A stretch of DNA of 64,000 bases from a virus, in the IMG/VR virus record IMGVR_UViG_3300037313_001714, positions 1 through 64,000 of that record, one strand, 5' to 3'. Position numbers and translations under genes: made by a program. Below the pieces are notes generated by a model. That model made no database searches. It was not told the DNA's origin and saw nothing but the letters and a program-made list of their open reading frames with translations. Below are positions 8,519 to 61,060 of this stretch, piece by piece; positions within the stretch are counted from its first letter, which is position 1; the number at the start of each line of letters is the position of its first letter.

Positions 8519-8806
8519 GTGACGACTCAGCTGCAAGGCGACGACGATTGCCGCTACACGATGAACATCTCGCGCGGCGCGCGCGATCGGCTCAACGAAC
8601 TGGCCGGCCAGTTCAAGATCACGCAGGGCGAAGTGGTGGAGGTGCTGCTGGCCAGGTGCGACACCAGCGCCCACGCCGACGCCTTCAAGAAAGCCCGCCA
8701 GGACAAGCTGGCAGTGCGCGCGCAAAAGCGCGCCGAGCTGGCCGAGCTGCGCAAGCTGCCGCCCGACAAGCTGCACCAGCTGGTGCAGCAAGCCGGAAAG
8801 CCATGA
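8519..8806 (+). CDS. ribbon-helix-helix-like / coiled-coil small protein
   Basis: GTG start after a GGGAG SD; 'YTMNISRGARDRLNELAGQFKITQGEVVEVLL'. Confidence 0.5.
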   Translation: MTTQLQGDDDCRYTMNISRGARDRLNELAGQFKITQGEVVEVLLARCDTSAHADAFKKARQDKLAVRAQKRAELAELRKLPPDKLHQLVQQAGKP

Positions 8807-46168: not shown

Positions 46169-46254
46169 GAGGCGTGCTTTCCTTGTGCTTTTCGGGAGGG
46201 GGAGCGTGAGTCTAGCCAAGTCACCGATGACTTACTATAAGCGGCGGAATTAAT

Positions 46255-51817: not shown

Positions 51818-51909
51818 GTCGCTCCTGAAGTCATCGGTGACTTTGCATCATGGGCGCACGAATCCCGCGCGCCCGGTTTGTTCATTATACGCAGTAAGTC
51901 AGGCGTGAG

Positions 51910-52290
51910 TCACCTGACGGGGAACGCCAGATCAATCTTCCTGGGATCGTTCGCGGGGTCGACGGCGAAGTGCGTGCAACGCACGCCCCGCTCCAGGCCC
52001 AGCGGCGTGCGCGTGACGAAGCTCTTCTCGGGATGGAAGAAGTCCTCCAGCGGCGACAGCCACACGCACTTCTTGCCGCCCCGCCTGGCCACCACGCCCA
52101 CGTGCAGGAAGCCCTGCTCGCGGCAGCGCGCCAGCGTGCCGGTGTCGATGCTCCAGCCGTTGAATTTGCGATTGAGGTGGCGCATCTGCCGGTGCGCCAG
52201 GTAGATCCGGTGGCCGCCCTCGGTCTCGTAGTAGATGCCCAGCAACTTGCCATTGAGCGTGTGCCGTGTGCGCGCTACACGATGGGCCAT
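51910..52290 (-). CDS. hypothetical protein
   Basis: 126 aa ORF. Confidence 0.6.
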   Translation of the reverse strand: MAHRVARTRHTLNGKLLGIYYETEGGHRIYLAHRQMRHLNRKFNGWSIDTGTLARCREQGFLHVGVVARRGGKKCVWLSPLEDFFHPEKSFVTRTPLGLERGVRCTHFAVDPANDPRKIDLAFPVR

Positions 52291-53049: not shown

Positions 53050-54063
53050 TTACGAGCCCAACAAAGCTGTCAGTTTAGGCATAAGAGAGTCGGCCCTAAT
53101 CAGCTCGGCGAAGGCCTTTTTGCTCAACTGTTTGCCGTCCCACTTAACGAAGCCTTTGGTCGGCACTTCGATCTTGCCGGCCTCCATCAAGGATTCAACC
53201 ATCGAATATTCACGGTCGAAATAAGCAGTGCCGTTTTCATCAAAGGACATCCGCATGGCGGTCTCCTTGAACGGCTTAGTGAACTTGGTTTTCACCACCT
53301 GGATGCCGATCTTCTGTGCAACAAATTCCTTGCTGCCATTGACCTGCTGCATGACCTTTTCGCGACCGAGCGCCAGGCGGGCCGACGCATAGAACTCCAT
53401 CGCCTTGCCGCCGGGCGTGGTGCGCGGGTCGCCGTAGACGACACCCGGCTTCAGACGCATCTGGTTGAGGTAGATGAACATGGCGTTGTAACGCTCGGCG
53501 TACATCGCCATCGCTTTGAGCGTCGTGGAGGTGACACGGGCCAGCGCCGTCGTGTCATTCATGTTGTAGTCGGCGAACGGTTTGGTGCCGATGCTGTCGG
53601 GAATGGCTGAGGCGATCGAATCGAAGCCGACCACGATCGGCGCCTCGGGCGCAATCACCTTCTTCTCGCGCAGCCAGTGGCAATACAGCGCAGCGCGGGT
53701 GTTGCCCTGCTCCCACGAATTGTTGGGCGGCCGGTGGTAGTACCAGTAGGGCCGCTCGTCCGACATCTTGTAGCCGTCCTTGGCCAGATCGATGTTGAAG
53801 GTGCGCTCCCAGTCGATGAAGGCGGCCGCGCCACCCATGCGCTGGGCCTGCGCCATCACGTCGGTGAGGATCGCGGTCTTGCCGGTGCCGCTCTCGCCGA
53901 AGATTTCATACATGCGGCCGAACACCCAGCCGCCGTCGTATTTCCCGGTCATCGCCTCGTTGAGCGGCGGGAAGCCGGTGTCCAGATAGACGAGGTTCAA
54001 CCCGTCGTCCTCTTCGGGAAAGGCCTTGTCGAAGTCGGCAATCAATGCTGCGCTGGCACTCAT
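53050..54063 (-). CDS. recA: RecA/UvsX-family recombinase
   Basis: GESGTGKT Walker A, IDWER, FDSIA, NQMR, TPGGKAMEFYASARL. Confidence 0.93.
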   Translation of the reverse strand: MSASAALIADFDKAFPEEDDGLNLVYLDTGFPPLNEAMTGKYDGGWVFGRMYEIFGESGTGKTAILTDVMAQAQRMGGAAAFIDWERTFNIDLAKDGYKMSDERPYWYYHRPPNNSWEQGNTRAALYCHWLREKKVIAPEAPIVVGFDSIASAIPDSIGTKPFADYNMNDTTALARVTSTTLKAMAMYAERYNAMFIYLNQMRLKPGVVYGDPRTTPGGKAMEFYASARLALGREKVMQQVNGSKEFVAQKIGIQVVKTKFTKPFKETAMRMSFDENGTAYFDREYSMVESLMEAGKIEVPTKGFVKWDGKQLSKKAFAELIRADSLMPKLTALLGS

Positions 54064-55082
54064 GTGGAAAGTTCCTTTGGTTTGAAATGGTCGAGGTAGG
54101 CGTCGAGCTGCTTGAGGATCGAGGCGAAGGCCAGCTCCTCGCAGATCGCGGCGAAGGCCTCGGGATCGAAGCAGCCCTTGTCGACATGGATGTCGGCGGG
54201 GTTGGGTGGCGTGACCTTCAGCAGCTGCATGAGCTGGAAGTTGCGCCGGAAGATGGCGCGACCCTGGCCGGGCCAGGCGTCCTGGTGTTTCTTGAGCGCC
54301 TTCGCGTCGGTCGGGTCGCCCGCATACAGCGCGGCCCAGGCCTCCTTGTCGTGCTCGCACTCGCCCCGCCACAAGCTCTTTTCGGCCTTGCTCTTGGGCT
54401 TGTACGCGCCGCTGTCGCACTGACGCCAGAACTCGCGCACGCTGCCGAAGGTGGCGATCAGCTCGATCGCGCCCTTCTCGCCGATGCCGCCCACGCCGCT
54501 GATGACGTCCGAGCTGTCGCCCATGAGACATTTGCGCTCGAGGAACTGCAGCGGCGTGCGGCAGCCCGTCCATTCGTAGAAGTTGCGGGCCGTGACCAGG
54601 CGCGAGCCGTCGCGCATGTCGCGCCAGAAGACGTTGCGCCGCACGAACTGCAGCCAGTCACCGTCGCCGGTGATGCAGCCGATGCGGTGACGCGGATCGA
54701 CGCTGAGCTTGCGCACGAAGTGGCCGGCCAGGTCGTCGGCCTCGTGAGTGAACGCCGTGATCTGGCGGATGCCCAGGTGCCGCAGCAGACCCTGGATGTA
54801 GGGCTTCTGGCTGGCGTAGGCCTCCTTCATGGCCACCCGCTCGGGCGTCGAGCGCCGGTTGCTCTTGTAGTCCGGGTGCAGCGCGAAGCGCCACTCGGCG
54901 CGGCCGTCCCACAGCACCAGCGGCGTCGCGCCGGGATAGTCCTGGCGCAGCGTGCGCATGTCGATCAGCATCCCGTAGGCGGCCTGCGTGGGCTGGCTGC
55001 CCGAGGTCAGCTTGGTGGCTTGCTGCCAGGCGTAGCCCAGCGCATTGCCGTCCACCAGCAACGTGAACTTGTCGTAGTTCAT
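54060..55082 (-). CDS. 5'-3' exonuclease / flap endonuclease (PolI N-terminal / T5 D15 / T4 RNase H type)
   Basis: LLVDGN, YKSNR, EADD, TGDGD, GDSSDVISGVGGIGEK (H3TH). Confidence 0.9.
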   Translation of the reverse strand: MNYDKFTLLVDGNALGYAWQQATKLTSGSQPTQAAYGMLIDMRTLRQDYPGATPLVLWDGRAEWRFALHPDYKSNRRSTPERVAMKEAYASQKPYIQGLLRHLGIRQITAFTHEADDLAGHFVRKLSVDPRHRIGCITGDGDWLQFVRRNVFWRDMRDGSRLVTARNFYEWTGCRTPLQFLERKCLMGDSSDVISGVGGIGEKGAIELIATFGSVREFWRQCDSGAYKPKSKAEKSLWRGECEHDKEAWAALYAGDPTDAKALKKHQDAWPGQGRAIFRRNFQLMQLLKVTPPNPADIHVDKGCFDPEAFAAICEELAFASILKQLDAYLDHFKPKELST

Positions 55083-55090
55083 GAACAAGG

Positions 55091-55170
55091 AGGTCGCGTG
55101 TGGGACTCGAACCCACCTGGCGGAGCGAAGCGGGAAGCTCCGCGGGCCTCACCCGAAGCCGAACGCGACC
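55091..55170 (-). ncRNA. tRNA-like cloverleaf with non-canonical 8-bp acceptor stem and 7-bp/10-nt anticodon arm
   Basis: GGTCGCGT/ACGCGACC acceptor; GGCTT-CGGGTG-AGGCC D-arm; GCGGAGC-TTCCCGCTTC-GCTCCGC; GTGGG-TTCGAGT-CCCAC T-arm; no encoded CCA. Confidence 0.7.
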
Positions 55171-55179
55171 GTGTCCGCT

Positions 55180-56022
55180 TTACGCGGTCGTGTCGATGTC
55201 GCCCAGCAGGTCGTCCAGCTCGGCGTCGAGGGCGACACCGGCGTCCGGTGCAGTGCGGGCGGCGCCCGCGGCGCCGTTGCCGTTCACGCGCGCGCCGATC
55301 GGGGCGGCCGCCGGACGCGGCAGGGCCGTGGTCGGGGTCGCGGGCGCTGCGCCCGGTGCCGGCAGCAGGCCAGCGACCGTGTTCAGGGCCGCCAGGGCGC
55401 GCTGCTCGCCCTCGGTGCTGTCCTGCTTCACGTAGTCATCCAGGTCCGTCACCTTGTCCTGCACAGCCTTCGGGATCGGCGTGCCAGGCTTCATGCTCAT
55501 GGTGGTGGTGTAGCGCGTGTTCAGACCCGTGCCTTCGCGGTTCACGACGATTTCGTGCCCCTTCTCGGGGTCCAACACGGCTTCCGCGCCGTTCTCGATG
55601 ATCATTTCGAAGATTTGCGTCAGCACCTGCTGCGCCACTTTCGTCACCTTCGGCGTGTTGGGCTCGGACGAGTCCAGGTGCAGCGCGTTGACGAGGTGTT
55701 CCTTGCTGGACTTGGACTTCGCGAGGACTTCGGTTGTGGTGTCGTCCGGGGCGCTGGCGATCAGCGCGCGCAGCGCGTTGCAGGTGTTGCACGGCTTGCC
55801 GTCGGTGGCAGCGGCGCAGACATAGACGGCCTGGAGTTCATCGGCCGCGTTCTTGATGAAGTGCTGGCCGAAGTCGCGCCAGAACTGCTCGGGGTTCTTC
55901 GGGTTCCAGCCGGCGAACAGCCGGATGCGGTTCTTGCCTTGGTTGAAGCCGGCGGCGCGCTCGATGCGCTTCATGGCTTGTTTCTTGGAGGCGATCAGGG
56001 CAGCGATTTTTGCGGCGTCCAT
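55180..56022 (-). CDS. gp32-like single-stranded DNA-binding protein
   Basis: 'GKNRIRL..W...FWRDFGQHF...C...CNTC...NTRY', acidic C-terminal tail; located between mediator and recombinase genes. Confidence 0.7.
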   Translation of the reverse strand: MDAAKIAALIASKKQAMKRIERAAGFNQGKNRIRLFAGWNPKNPEQFWRDFGQHFIKNAADELQAVYVCAAATDGKPCNTCNALRALIASAPDDTTTEVLAKSKSSKEHLVNALHLDSSEPNTPKVTKVAQQVLTQIFEMIIENGAEAVLDPEKGHEIVVNREGTGLNTRYTTTMSMKPGTPIPKAVQDKVTDLDDYVKQDSTEGEQRALAALNTVAGLLPAPGAAPATPTTALPRPAAAPIGARVNGNGAAGAARTAPDAGVALDAELDDLLGDIDTTA

Positions 56023-56157
56023 GTGGTGTGTGACAGCAGTAAAGAGGTTGAAGAGATGGCAGGTTTGCAGGTGCTTCTCGACGCGGTCGCCCGCGTCAAT
56101 CGCACCCGACATTATACCTCACCGGTGACTTACTGACGAGCCCGAGTCCGCGGGCCT

Positions 56158-57392: not shown

Positions 57393-60300
57393 CTAAGAAA
57401 CGATCTCGTGAACGGTCTTGAACACCTCCTTCAAGGCGTCGTACTTGCTCGGGTCGAAGTTGATCTGTTGCGGGTTCAGGCCGCACACGATGGTGGCGGC
57501 CAGCGCCGCGTCGTAGATGGTCTTGCCCACCATCTCCGCGCCCTTGGCGCCCGGGATGAAGCGGCGGATCGCTGCTGAGCCCAGCGCCACGATCACCGGC
57601 GGCTTGATGACTTCCAGCTCGCGGGTGAGGAACTGGCTGCAGCCGTTGATCTGGTCGTTGGAGAGGAACTTGTCGTTCTTCTTGGCCTTCACGAGCGTGG
57701 TGTAGTAGCCGTCACCGGGCTGCAGGCCGGCATCGCGGATGGCTTCCTTCACCCAGCCGGCGGCCTCGCCCTCCAGCAGCTTGTCGGCCTTTTCCTCTTC
57801 CCAGCTCGGGCAGTCGGCCACCACCATGAACTTCACGTTGGACTTCATGCGCGCCTGCGGATGCGGCCGGCCGGCCAGGTCGCAGTCGCCGCACTTGCGG
57901 TACTCCTGCACGATGTGGATCACCTTCGCGCGCACGAACTTGTCGGTGACGTCCGTGGTGCGGTCGGCCTTGACGTTGTCGATGATCAGGCCTGGCATCA
58001 GCTCGGTCTGGTCGCGCCGGCGGTCCGGGTGGCGCGCCGGCTTCTCGGTCGGGTCGATGCTGGCCAGTGCGCCGACGAGTTTGAGGCGCTCGCGGTGCGT
58101 GATCGTGATCTTGCTGCCCTTGACGCTGGTCACTGCCTCGAAGTGCGCGGCGCTGGTGAAGCGGCCGCCGGCGGCGGCGCGGTGGGCCATGAGCTTGTGC
58201 GCCGTGTTGTCGCTCAGGCCCTTGACGGCGCTGAACGGTGCCAGGATGTGCGTGTCGTCGGGAATGGTGAAGCGCTCGGTGGACAGGTTGATGTCCGGCG
58301 GCAGGATCTCGATGCCCGCCTCGCGCGCGTCCTTGACCAGGCCCGCGAGCTTGTCCTCCTTGACGATCGACAGGCAGGCAGCGAAGTATTCGGCCGGGTA
58401 GCGCACGCGCAGCCACATGGTCCAGTAGCTGATGATGGAATACTCGACCGCGTGCGAGCGGTTGAAGCCGTAGCCGGCGAACGCCTCGATCTTGTCGAAC
58501 AGCGCGCCCGCGATCGCGGCATCCATGCCCGAGTGCTTCTCGCAGCCCTCCACCCAGGCCTTGCGCTGCTCGGCCATCTTGACCTTGTCCTTCTTGCCCA
58601 TCGCCTTGCGCAGGTGGTCGGCGCCGGCGCGGGAAAAGCCGGCCAGGTCGATCGCCAGCTGCATCACCTGCTCCTGGTAGACGATGACCGAGTAGGTGGA
58701 CTCGAGCGCCGCCTCCATGTTCGGGTGCTCGTAGCTGGGCGTGAGCATGCCCTGTTTGATCGCCACGAAGTCGTCCATCAGGCCCGAGTCCATCGGGCCG
58801 GGCCGGTACAGGGCGGTGGCCGCGGTGATGTCCTCGAAGGTGAGCGGTCCACCCTTGCGCAGCTCGCGCAGCAGCTTGCGCATGCCAGGCGACTCGAACT
58901 GGAAGACGCCCGTGGTGTCGCCGCGCCCGAAGGCGTCCATCACGTCCGGGTCCTCGAGCGGCAGATCGGTGTAGGTGACGTCGACGCCGTGCCGGCCCTT
59001 GATGTACTGCCGTGCGATCTCCAGCACGTCGAGCGTGGACAGGCCCAGCACGTCCATCTTGACCAGGCCCCAGTCCTCCACCGTGCGCTTGTCCCAGGAC
59101 ACCACCGGCAGGCCTTCATCCGTCTCGCTGCGCGTCTCCACGACCGCGCGCTCGTGCAGCGGCACGCCGCCGATCACCACGCCCCCGGCGTGCTGGCCGA
59201 ACGAGCGCATCACGCCTTCGAGCTTCAGCGCGTGGCCCCAGATGTGCGGATGGTTCAGGCGGAACTTGTCGATCTCGGGGATCGCTTTGGCGGCTTCCTC
59301 GAGGGTGGCCGACACGCCCTGCTCCTTTGGCACCAGCTTGGTCGGACTCAGCTCCAGGTTGGACAGCTCGTGCACCCGGCCCGCGTCCCTCAGCGCCGAT
59401 GCGGAGGCGAGCGTCGAAAAGTTGCTGACACCGGCCACCCGGTCGGCACCGTGGCGGCCGACCAGGTACTGGAAGACCTCGTGCCGCCGGCTCGTCTGGA
59501 AGTCCAGGTCCGCGTCCGGGAGGTCGAGGCGTTCAGGGTTAATGAACCGCTCGAACAGCAGGTTGAAACGGATAGGGTCCACCTCGGTGATCCCAAGGAG
59601 GTAGGCAACGAGACTGCCACCAACCGATCCCCGACCGGGACCAACAATGATGCCATTGGCTTTGCTCCAGTTCACGAGGTCCGCGACCAGCAGGAAGTAG
59701 CCGGCGAAGCCCATCTTTTTCAGGACCGCCAGCTCGTAGTTCAAGCGCTCGCGGTACTTGGGCAGGTCGGCGATCGACGGCTGGTGGCCCATGACGCGGC
59801 GGCCGAAGCGCCTACCCCAGCCCGCGATGCACAGCCTGCCCAGCTCCATGAACTCGTTGGTCGCCATGGTGGGCAGCGACACCGGCAGCTTCGCGAACTC
59901 CCACCTGCAGGCGTCGGCCAGGTGCTGGGTGTTGACCAACCCCCTGGCGAACAGGGTGGCGATCTCATGCTTGCTCAGACCCGTGTTTCCCCACTTCTCC
60001 GCACGGTCCACCGCGCCGCTCAGACGTAGTCGCAGCGTCGCAGCCGGCTTGAAGCCGAAGTCGCGCACGAACTGGCGCGGGCGGTGCCGCGTGTCCATCT
60101 TGTACTGCCCCGACGAGCAGATCGTCTGCAAGACCTCCAGCGTGGGTGCGTCTGCGTCGTCGCGGTACAGAAACGGATAGGTGACAAGGGTGCGCGCAGC
60201 GTGCGTGTGCGCTGCCTTCAGCGCGCGCGCGTTGAGCGTGTCGAACAGCGGCGTGTCGATCGGCGCCAGTTCGACATAGACGCGCTCGCGGCTGAACTTC

Positions 60301-60788
60301 GCGATCAGCCGCTGCAGGATCGCGTCGGCCTCCTGGTGGTGCCACAGGCTGTTGAAGTCGCCGGTGGACACAAGCACGTCCTCGAGCGCGAACACCTGCT
60401 CCCAGCCGGTGCGCGCGTGGTAGTAGAACTGCTCGCGCGAGTTGGCCGCCGACAGCAGCTTCATCAGGCTCGTGATGCCGCGCTCGCCCGCCACGTAGAC
60501 CTTGATGCACACGTGCGGGTTCGGCTTGTCCTCGATGCCGCTGTTCTTGGCCGGCTTCTTCCACAGCGGGTCGTCGTAGACGCGCAGGCGGCAGCCGACG
60601 ATCGGCTTGATGCCGGCTTTCTTGCACTTCGTGGTGAAGTCCACCAGCGAGTGGATCGACATCGTGTCCACCAGCGCGACCGACTCGTAGCCGTGCCGCT
60701 GGGCCTCCTCGATGATGTGGTCCGTCTGCAGCAGCGACTCGCCGATGCTGAAGTCGCTGCGCACGGACAGCGCGTGGTTGATGCTCAT
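57393..60788 (-). CDS. dnaE: DNA polymerase III alpha subunit with C-terminal uracil-DNA-glycosylase-like domain
   Basis: PHP 'HALSVRSDFSIGES', GPGRGS, PDADLD, GQHAGG, FQFES, YGFNRSHA. C-terminal 'FMVVADCPSWEEEK...TTLVKAK...FLTRELEVIKPPVIVALGSAA'. Confidence 0.93.
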   Translation of the reverse strand: MSINHALSVRSDFSIGESLLQTDHIIEEAQRHGYESVALVDTMSIHSLVDFTTKCKKAGIKPIVGCRLRVYDDPLWKKPAKNSGIEDKPNPHVCIKVYVAGERGITSLMKLLSAANSREQFYYHARTGWEQVFALEDVLVSTGDFNSLWHHQEADAILQRLIAKFSRERVYVELAPIDTPLFDTLNARALKAAHTHAARTLVTYPFLYRDDADAPTLEVLQTICSSGQYKMDTRHRPRQFVRDFGFKPAATLRLRLSGAVDRAEKWGNTGLSKHEIATLFARGLVNTQHLADACRWEFAKLPVSLPTMATNEFMELGRLCIAGWGRRFGRRVMGHQPSIADLPKYRERLNYELAVLKKMGFAGYFLLVADLVNWSKANGIIVGPGRGSVGGSLVAYLLGITEVDPIRFNLLFERFINPERLDLPDADLDFQTSRRHEVFQYLVGRHGADRVAGVSNFSTLASASALRDAGRVHELSNLELSPTKLVPKEQGVSATLEEAAKAIPEIDKFRLNHPHIWGHALKLEGVMRSFGQHAGGVVIGGVPLHERAVVETRSETDEGLPVVSWDKRTVEDWGLVKMDVLGLSTLDVLEIARQYIKGRHGVDVTYTDLPLEDPDVMDAFGRGDTTGVFQFESPGMRKLLRELRKGGPLTFEDITAATALYRPGPMDSGLMDDFVAIKQGMLTPSYEHPNMEAALESTYSVIVYQEQVMQLAIDLAGFSRAGADHLRKAMGKKDKVKMAEQRKAWVEGCEKHSGMDAAIAGALFDKIEAFAGYGFNRSHAVEYSIISYWTMWLRVRYPAEYFAACLSIVKEDKLAGLVKDAREAGIEILPPDINLSTERFTIPDDTHILAPFSAVKGLSDNTAHKLMAHRAAAGGRFTSAAHFEAVTSVKGSKITITHRERLKLVGALASIDPTEKPARHPDRRRDQTELMPGLIIDNVKADRTTDVTDKFVRAKVIHIVQEYRKCGDCDLAGRPHPQARMKSNVKFMVVADCPSWEEEKADKLLEGEAAGWVKEAIRDAGLQPGDGYYTTLVKAKKNDKFLSNDQINGCSQFLTRELEVIKPPVIVALGSAAIRRFIPGAKGAEMVGKTIYDAALAATIVCGLNPQQINFDPSKYDALKEVFKTVHEIVS

Positions 60789-61060
60789 ACTGGGATGTAG
60801 TCCTGGTCCACCCGTTCGGGAATGGTTCGCTCCCACAAGATGACGAGGTTATGCATGCGCGTGCGGCTGATGGTTCTGGATGGTGAAGTTGCCGTGCACC
60901 CCGGCGACGGCGACACGAACGAGCTGCCCGGATCGAACTCGCTCTCGTTGTGCTCCTGCAGGTAGCTCGCGCGCACCCGCCAGCCCGACTCCGTTGTGGG
61001 CGGCAGCAGCGTGCCGGAGAACGGCAGCGTCACTGTGTGGACGTGATATTCGAACCTCAT
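60785..61060 (-). CDS. hypothetical protein
   Basis: Start MRFEYHV; coupled ORF. Confidence 0.5.
   Translation of the reverse strand: MRFEYHVHTVTLPFSGTLLPPTTESGWRVRASYLQEHNESEFDPGSSFVSPSPGCTATSPSRTISRTRMHNLVILWERTIPERVDQDYIPV

Follow-up and report, generated by a model that had tools for sequence, protein, structure and literature searches.

The window considered here comprises the first 64,000 nt (positions 1 to 64,000) of IMG/VR virus record IMGVR_UViG_3300037313_001714, a phage genome of 118,453 bp with direct terminal repeats. On its minus strand, an 82-nt tRNA-shaped cloverleaf (55170–55089) lies between the genes for a gp32-like single-stranded DNA-binding protein (SSB) and a FEN-type 5′-3′ exonuclease (Table 1). 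The gap between these two genes is 97 nt long and is nearly filled by the element: the SSB stop codon (55182–55180) is followed by a 9-nt spacer, the cloverleaf, the sequence UUGUUC, and the exonuclease AUG at 55082. The genes on this strand are, in order, those for a DnaE-type polymerase, a protein whose only matches are PHROGs of unknown function, the SSB, then the element, the exonuclease, a RecA/UvsX-like protein, SbcD, and SbcC. The element is the only tRNA call made by ARAGORN (default settings) in the entire phage genome. An assembly error is unlikely because the 701 bases around the element show no difference between contigs of two sequencing runs from two studies (depths of ~140 and 41), runs that may be the record's own source.

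The cloverleaf is the minimum-free-energy fold of the element (−43.8 kcal/mol, 72% of the ensemble, z = −2.8), and it is retained when the element is folded together with 201 nt of mRNA context. In this fold, the four arms contain 26 stem pairs with zero mismatches. An acceptor stem of 8 bp is followed by a 2-nt linker, a D arm whose 6-bp stem closes the 4-nt loop GGGU (alternatively read as 4 bp and 8 nt), an expanded anticodon arm, a 3-nt variable loop (CAG), and a T arm. The general hallmarks of a cloverleaf are all there: four arms, a T loop that fits UUCRANY with G53–C61, and a D loop that has GG. The 3′ side of the acceptor stem continues with U, CC, and U, so that a CCA end is not encoded. 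In canonical numbering, the element corresponds to a 7/5 tRNA plus an extra G−1:C73 pair. A preliminary description of this DNA, made from the letters alone, had proposed a cloverleaf between the SSB and exonuclease genes, and the fold, the ARAGORN call, and the two identical assemblies all indicate that it is real. The anatomy given there is also correct save for the D stem, which was put at 5 bp and has 6 bp in the minimum-free-energy fold.

Judged from sequence, the acceptor, D, and T arms of the element are homologous to those of a phage-type tRNA-Glu(UUC). Pattern scans of IMG/VR used the D loop and T arm as anchors at first and later only the 5′ half, and all four IMG/VR matches to the 23-nt 5′-half pattern are tRNA-Glu(UUC) genes. 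A covariance model built from the element, R1, on which the element itself scores 114.7 bits, matches tRNA-Glu(UUC) genes at 52–57 bits (L234, L233, L228, and L235) and 48 bits (L211). These genes lie in tRNA clusters of large uncultured phages, represented by IMG/VR contigs. ARAGORN types all five as Glu(ttc), and L234, the one homolog tested, passes the Rfam tRNA model with 41.2 bits. The U8–C9 linker and the D arm are nearly identical between element and homologs, and the acceptor stem reads GUCGCGU/ACGCGAC in the element versus AUCGCGU/ACGCGAU in L234. The 3′ ends of the homologs are G-CCA or G-CCU; the latter is found in L211, whose N-CCU end the element has as well.

Covariation was assessed in an alignment of the element with four homologs over the acceptor, D, and T stems (18 pairs, 90 cells). 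In these five sequences, 90 of 90 stem cells pair and 7 of the 18 pairs are changed on both sides; no shuffle out of 500 equaled the observed pairing, and slid controls pair at 30–53%. Every stem difference between the element and its tRNA-Glu homologs is compensatory.

R1 run on 151 Burkholderiales genomes yielded selC at 33–39 bits, tRNA-His at 28–31 bits, and no true homolog; selC and tRNA-His, its best cross-matches, are the two tRNA classes whose acceptor stems have 8 bp. The 5′-half pattern is absent from 401 sampled Pseudomonadota genomes, and for this reason the tRNA type looks phage-borne. With blastn, the element gave T-arm matches only among 50,697 phage records, and an IMG/VR search with P0006 found nothing. 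Derivation from tRNA-His was considered and rejected, as the similarity found by BLAST in four Burkholderiales genomes was confined to its 16-nt T arm. The resemblance to selC can be understood from the extra G−1:C73 pair of the element combined with the 6/4 D arm that characterizes its tRNA-Glu family. Because 5.6% of phage codons specify Glu, a working tRNA-Glu would have been a sensible acquisition for an ancestor of this phage.

The tRNA clusters that carry the homologs hold some oddities of their own (L211:8464-8537 and 8539-8614, L234:2579-2655, L228:3018-3092). Two R1 matches there go uncalled by ARAGORN, one call is a "tRNA-???" with a 2-nt anticodon, and one tRNA has a CUA anticodon, is labeled Pyl, and could be an amber suppressor.

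The anticodon arm is where the element departs from this family. Its expanded arm reads GCGGA-GCUUCCC-GCUUCGC-UCCGC, in which a 7-nt unit stands in tandem (GCUUCCC, then GCUUCGC); the two copies agree at 6 of 7 positions, and each contains one UUC. Between the D and T arms the element has 28 nt versus 22 nt in the homologs, and a MAFFT alignment places a single 6-nt gap inside the arm for all four homologs. When either copy is deleted in silico, the resulting 75-nt cloverleaf has a 5-bp stem and a 7-nt loop and is typed by ARAGORN as tRNA-Glu(ttc). In the element itself, the GC of copy 1 pairs with the GC closing copy 2, so that the stem grows to 7 bp and a 10-nt loop remains. The evidence points to the odd 7-bp/10-nt arm being a tRNA-Glu(UUC) anticodon arm altered by a 7-nt tandem duplication. 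With the loop unit doubled, there is no single UUC at positions 34–36 of a 7-nt loop, and the stable fold has no 5-bp anticodon stem with a 7-nt loop carrying U33 and a purine at 37. The homolog L211 (loop CCUUCAA) has C33, as does the element. Two earlier proposals, a Gly-CCC loop plus 3 nt and a frameshift-suppressor tRNA, are not borne out, since a duplicated tRNA-Glu(UUC) anticodon loop describes the arm. An exact 18-mer of the odd arm has no match in IMG/VR.

Table 1. Features of the SSB–exonuclease region, with positions in the 64,000-nt window
Feature	Position	Strand	Basis or remark
5′-3′ (FEN-type) exonuclease, AUG 55082, Shine-Dalgarno (SD) sequence absent	54060..55082	−	Pfam 5_3_exonuc_N, 5_3_exonuc; PHROG 107
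ACCUCCUU, identical to the anti-SD 8-mer; spans acceptor end, U, CC, and trailer	55087..55094	−	Sequence; judged largely a tRNA 3′-end by-product
tRNA-shaped element derived from tRNA-Glu(UUC), 82 nt	55089..55170	−	ARAGORN; minimum-free-energy cloverleaf; R1 model 114.7 bits
Acceptor stem, 3′ strand ACGCGACC	55092..55099	−	Fold; covariation
T arm GUGGG-UUCGAGU-CCCAC	55100..55116	−	Fold; 3/5 pairs with compensatory changes vs homologs
Expanded anticodon arm, 7-bp stem and 10-nt loop UUCCCGCUUC	55120..55143	−	Pair probability 0.92 vs 0.07 for the ARAGORN 5-bp/7-nt alternative
Tandem repeat copy 2, GCUUCGC, contains UUC	55125..55131	−	Overlaps the 6-nt MAFFT gap of four homologs
Tandem repeat copy 1, GCUUCCC, contains UUC	55132..55138	−	Its deletion gives ARAGORN tRNA-Glu(ttc)
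D arm GGCUUC-GGGU-GAGGCC, 6 bp including one U·G, 4-nt loop	55145..55160	−	Fold; near-identical to tRNA-Glu GACUUC-GGGU-GAGGUC
Acceptor stem, 5′ strand GGUCGCGU; canonical numbering G−1 plus positions 1–7	55163..55170	−	Pairs with 55092–55099; 7 canonical pairs covary with homologs
gp32-like SSB, longest ORF; likely start AUG 56021	55180..56112	−	Pfam gp32, PHROG 1192
Promoter-like TCGTCA-17-TATAAT, overlapping operator-like palindrome 56116–56131	56111..56139	−	Just upstream of SSB

General tRNA callers do not recognize this ancestry. The Rfam tRNA model RF00005 (gathering cut-off 29 bits) matches nowhere in the phage genome at E ≤ 1. The best match within the clan is tRNA-Sec (RF01852) at 39.1 bits, under the cut-off of 47, and it is unspecific because ordinary tRNAs of Burkholderiales reach 27–47 bits with this model; authentic selC genes from three host genomes reach 72–75. 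The element also has no UCA in its loop and only a 3-nt variable loop. Of the features of tRNA-His, a G:C pair at −1:73 is possible, the loop is without GUG, and UCC rather than CCA follows. The ARAGORN call of tRNA-Gly(UCC) relies on a fold in which a 5-bp stem contains a G·U pair, position 37 is C, and the variable loop has 9 nt. Compared with the 7-bp/10-nt fold, this fold is less stable by 9.5 kcal/mol and has a pair probability of 0.07 rather than 0.92; the nearest homologs are Glu. The preliminary description had anticipated a weak or odd result from the callers, which is what was obtained. Taken together, the fold, the scores, and the Glu homology speak against a Gly, Sec, or frameshift-type tRNA identity. 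A copy of an integration site (attP) was likewise rejected: the cloverleaf is complete, no integrase gene lies in the vicinity, and its acceptor differs from those of host tRNAs.

Related phages show what normally occupies this gap. The exonuclease has hundreds of homologs, which lie on phage-sized contigs of ~105–120 kb and on Massilia, Paraburkholderia, Undibacterium, Duganella, and other Burkholderiales contigs; the gene order is shared out to Rhizobium phage RHph_X66. The closest homologs of the exonuclease, P0002–P0005, have 70–73% identity, and a set of 162 related loci was compared that leaves aside the contigs of these four. No tRNA lies within 2.5 kb of the exonuclease in any of the 162 loci, four complete relatives have zero tRNAs, and blastn of the 3.5-kb region returned distant relatives only. 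Ninety distinct short SSB–exonuclease gaps (median 62 nt) contain one strong hairpin each, with a T run often coming after it, and an SD-like motif is present in 61 of the 90. Many related gaps have an operator-like palindrome spanning the SSB stop codon. Some relatives carry a longer insert between the SSB terminator hairpin and the exonuclease gene, which in L014 (L014:1959-2489) is a NUMOD4/HNH_3 homing-endonuclease gene according to Pfam. The hairpin and SD signals together with the inserts mark the gap as both a regulatory cassette and an insertion hot spot. By comparison with these relatives, the cloverleaf stands in the place of the whole ancestral intercistronic cassette in this phage. 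Conservation of the structure in relatives, which the preliminary description had proposed to look for, is thus divided: the cloverleaf is absent from the 162 related loci, and its fold is kept among the phage tRNA-Glu homologs.

Several other features of the related gaps were seen. The insert of L058 resembles that of L014 by eye, and L062 carries a different one. The gap of RHph_X66 (L002 6650-6740) holds three hairpins, two of them with pyrimidine-rich loops of 10–12 nt; one such loop, AUUCCCGCCC, has the 7-mer UUCCCGC in common with the element's 10-nt loop, which may be chance. A similarity between GGAGCUUC and the hairpin of L009 was discarded as being at chance level for an 8-mer.

The start of the exonuclease gene is unusual as well. 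The N-terminus predicted from 55082 is consistent with 29 homologs, and none of GGAG, GAGG, or AGGA occurs within 20 nt before the AUG, in agreement with the earlier remark that the exonuclease has no SD of its own and starts next to the element. One subclade of relatives likewise has no SD and places the AUG directly 3′ of the hairpin. In that subclade (L009, L017, L021, L023, L031, L048, L072, L074, and others), the hairpin is long and nested and has a GAGGAA-like motif in its 5′ flank; initiation there is possibly structure-dependent or SD-independent. The preliminary description had also seen in the junction between element and exonuclease a match to the 16S anti-SD. The 8-mer is indeed present, and a Massilia and a Paraburkholderia genome each contain a single copy of the 13-mer GGATCACCTCCTT, as would be expected if it is a 16S rRNA 3′ end. 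A designed feature is not supported, however: the match appears to be mostly a by-product, because 6 of the 8 bases follow from an acceptor strand that ends in ACC and continues with U and CC. On the plus strand, an ORF of 111 codons (55100–55435) runs antisense to the SSB C-terminus and has a perfect AAGGAGGT six bases before its GTG, an ideal spacing. We do not regard it as a gene: its wobble positions coincide with those of SSB, and a shadow frame of a high-GC gene is the most likely explanation.

The element is probably transcribed together with its neighbors. The promoter-like site upstream of SSB probably starts a transcription unit made up of SSB, the element, and the exonuclease. The next palindrome of the AAGTCA-N4-TGACTT type downstream is at 51896–51911; because there is none between 56116 and 51911, the SSB, element, exonuclease, and recombinase probably form one transcription unit. 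On the minus strand, no terminator-like site was found between 52000 and 58000, and the element itself lacks the U tract of an intrinsic terminator. Allowing up to 2 mismatches, the palindrome has 23 sites in the window versus 0.73 expected (for example 36–51, 46218–46233, 51828–51843, and 56116–56131), often at promoter-like sites. From this recurrence, it looks like the operator of a phage-wide regulator. The likely SSB start at AUG 56021 lies ~90 nt 3′ of the TATAAT box and has no SD (CACACACCAC-AUG), and the longest SSB ORF begins within the −10 box (56021–56139, minus strand). Farther upstream, the DnaE-type polymerase (57393–60836, minus strand) has PHP, Pol III alpha, finger, and HhH domains as well as a C-terminal domain of the uracil-DNA-glycosylase superfamily (Pfam UDG, residues 1000–1137, E = 2.8e-7). 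No sign of an origin is seen at the element in cumulative GC skew.

We consider it somewhat better than an even bet that a phage-type tRNA-Glu(UUC) gene was captured into the SSB–exonuclease gap, was disabled for decoding, and replaced the intercistronic cassette, and that it is probably still excised, whether to the benefit of the phage or merely tolerated. According to this explanation, the element would be a diverged copy of a phage-borne gene that differs from its homologs by three changes: the 7-nt duplication in the anticodon loop, an additional G:C pair that tops the acceptor stem, and the absence of an encoded CCA. Glutamyl-tRNA synthetase (GluRS) reads the anticodon loop, and to our knowledge 10-nt anticodon loops do not read triplets. 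For these reasons, charging by GluRS and decoding are most likely impossible with the expanded arm, and the product would be a disabled tRNA or a tRNA-like RNA.

Loss of decoding need not affect processing. Bacterial RNase P and 3′ processing enzymes need just the acceptor and T domain of their substrate and are helped by a CC after the discriminator. Since the acceptor, D, and T domains of the element are intact and these substrate rules are known, excision is expected. If the element is co-transcribed with SSB and the exonuclease from the promoter upstream of SSB, host RNase P and 3′ tRNA-processing enzymes would cut it out of the transcript. Cutting would separate the SSB and exonuclease messages, and the exonuclease message would be left with a pyrimidine-rich, SD-less leader of no more than ~9 nt. 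At the level of sequence, the element has what is looked for in tRNA punctuation or an RNase P site, an intact acceptor and T domain flanked by ORFs. Processing by RNase P and RNase Z to give a near-leaderless exonuclease mRNA, as suggested in the preliminary description, appears to be the most plausible functional idea.

Several points weigh against the captured and disabled tRNA-Glu gene. The repeat is merely 7 nt long and has one mismatch, and the excess in length is 6 nt rather than 7, so that an additional loss of 1 nt from the variable loop has to be assumed. Four perfectly paired stems and two clean extra pairs represent more order than is usual in a decaying pseudogene. The exonuclease, having neither an SD nor an open leader, needs an explanation. 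Finally, the element occurs once, with no known close relative that carries it, which makes selection on this copy unmeasurable.

An alternative is that the cloverleaf is an adaptive form of tRNA punctuation, recruited and kept as a processing signal in place of terminator and SD, with decoding irrelevant. The stabilities of the SSB and exonuclease mRNAs would then be uncoupled, and the exonuclease would be translated at a low, SD-independent level from a near-leaderless message. The element fits tightly into its site, 9 nt after the SSB stop and 6–9 nt before the AUG, all of its stems are intact, and the CC with which bacterial RNase P RNA pairs has been kept. It also replaces a structured element that is universal in the 90 distinct relatives, and the SD-less subclade offers a parallel in starting the exonuclease directly after a hairpin. 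On the other hand, the arrangement is seen in one genome only, RNase P cleavage would strip the SSB mRNA of a protective 3′ hairpin, and initiation of the leaderless type normally calls for a 5′-terminal AUG. We hold adaptive punctuation to be a tentative and rather unlikely alternative. Its boldest form would be a doubled-anticodon mimic of tRNA-Glu that has been selected as a punctuation device replacing operator, terminator, and SD, on which host RNase P and RNase Z set the ratio of SSB to exonuclease by way of a near-leaderless mRNA; the released RNA, with its two UUC triplets, might in addition decoy a host factor directed at tRNA-Glu. This proposal too strikes us as speculative, with the chances well against it.

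An excised RNA could also act in trans, either by mimicking tRNA-Glu and so serving as decoy or sponge for a tRNA-targeting nuclease of the host, for a modification enzyme, or for a defense that senses tRNAs, or by pairing of its pyrimidine-rich loop and tail with SD regions. We judge such a role improbable. We know of no bacterial nuclease specific for tRNA-Glu, although no exhaustive search was made, no defense-related or tRNA-repair gene was found adjoining the element, no CCA-adding enzyme (PF01743) was found in the phage genome, no 10-nt site complementary to the loop exists in that genome, and the element occurs only once. The display of two UUC triplets on a very stable stem and the perfect maintenance of the fold are nevertheless what a decoy might be expected to show. 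Phage tRNAs with altered anticodon loops have, moreover, been proposed to evade host anticodon nucleases (PMC10264068).

More doubtful still is a working decoder tRNA, which would read either as Gly(UCC) through the ARAGORN fold or as Glu through remodeling of the large loop, with CCA added post-transcriptionally. The ARAGORN tRNA-Gly(tcc) call, the U after the 8-bp stem as in bacterial tRNA-Gly, the canonical T loop and D-loop GG, and the share of Glu among the phage codons could be read in this way. Nonetheless, the UCC fold with its C37 and 9-nt variable loop is energetically disfavored, RF00005 does not match, the homologs are Glu rather than Gly, and GGA, at 44 among the 1,906 Gly codons of a crude gene set, is the one that the phage uses least; nor are 10-nt anticodon loops known to read triplets. 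The least probable reading is that of an inert relic, a dead tRNA gene that is unprocessed, functionless, and tolerated in the spacer: its uniqueness to this phage among the loci and relatives examined, its disrupted anticodon loop, and its missing CCA would suit a relic, but its stem pairs contain no mismatch, intact acceptor and T domains normally suffice for RNase P, and the functional signals of the gap have been replaced, so that exonuclease expression must work through or around the element.

The element can be placed alongside several known systems. It resembles phage tRNA-Glu(UUC) in the acceptor, U8–C9, the unusual D arm CUUC-GGGU-GAGG, and the T loop UUCGAGU. Whereas these homologs have a 5-bp/7-nt anticodon arm, mostly G73-CCA, and lie in tRNA clusters, the element has a duplicated loop, an extra top pair, and no CCA, is solitary in a replication operon, and fails the Rfam tRNA model. 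With tRNA-Sec and tRNA-His it shares 8 stacked acceptor pairs and a 5-bp T stem, and with selC also the 6-bp/4-nt D arm. However, it lacks the UCA and GUG anticodons as well as a long variable arm, and the acceptor of host selC is unrelated. An origin from selC, considered for the likeness in architecture and T arm, was rejected on the acceptor and the variable arm.

Mitochondria punctuate polycistronic transcripts with tRNAs, and bacteria have transcripts that combine tRNA and mRNA, as in the tufB operon. As in those systems, a tRNA-shaped unit adjoins two ORFs and the downstream ORF is nearly leaderless and without SD; unlike them, the element is a single phage site and not a working tRNA, and cleavage here is a prediction. 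The hairpin of related phages, a terminator or stabilizer, occupies the same position between SSB stop and exonuclease start, but the element is a four-arm cloverleaf without a U tract. Irregular tRNAs and tRNA-like RNAs of soil bacteria and phages were described by Mukai et al. in 2017 (PMC5389517), and some of these RNAs are charged yet unused in translation. The element is like them in its non-canonical cloverleaf, its long acceptor or G−1, and its selC-like D arm. Their acceptor/T branches are 8/4 or 9/3 and their variable arms long, whereas the element is 7/5 plus the −1:73 pair with a 3-nt variable loop.

Overall, a puzzling cloverleaf that looks in part Sec-like and in part Gly-like can be resolved by homology, as a phage-type tRNA-Glu with a tandem duplication in its anticodon loop. 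Its labeling by ARAGORN as a normal tRNA-Gly calls for caution in annotation. If the element is a relic only, it documents how a replication operon took up a tRNA gene at an insertion hot spot and how slippage inactivated that gene. If it is processed, it would represent natural tRNA punctuation in a bacterial virus, substituting for terminator and ribosome-binding site, and would provide a ready test case for SD-independent initiation after cleavage by RNase P or RNase Z.

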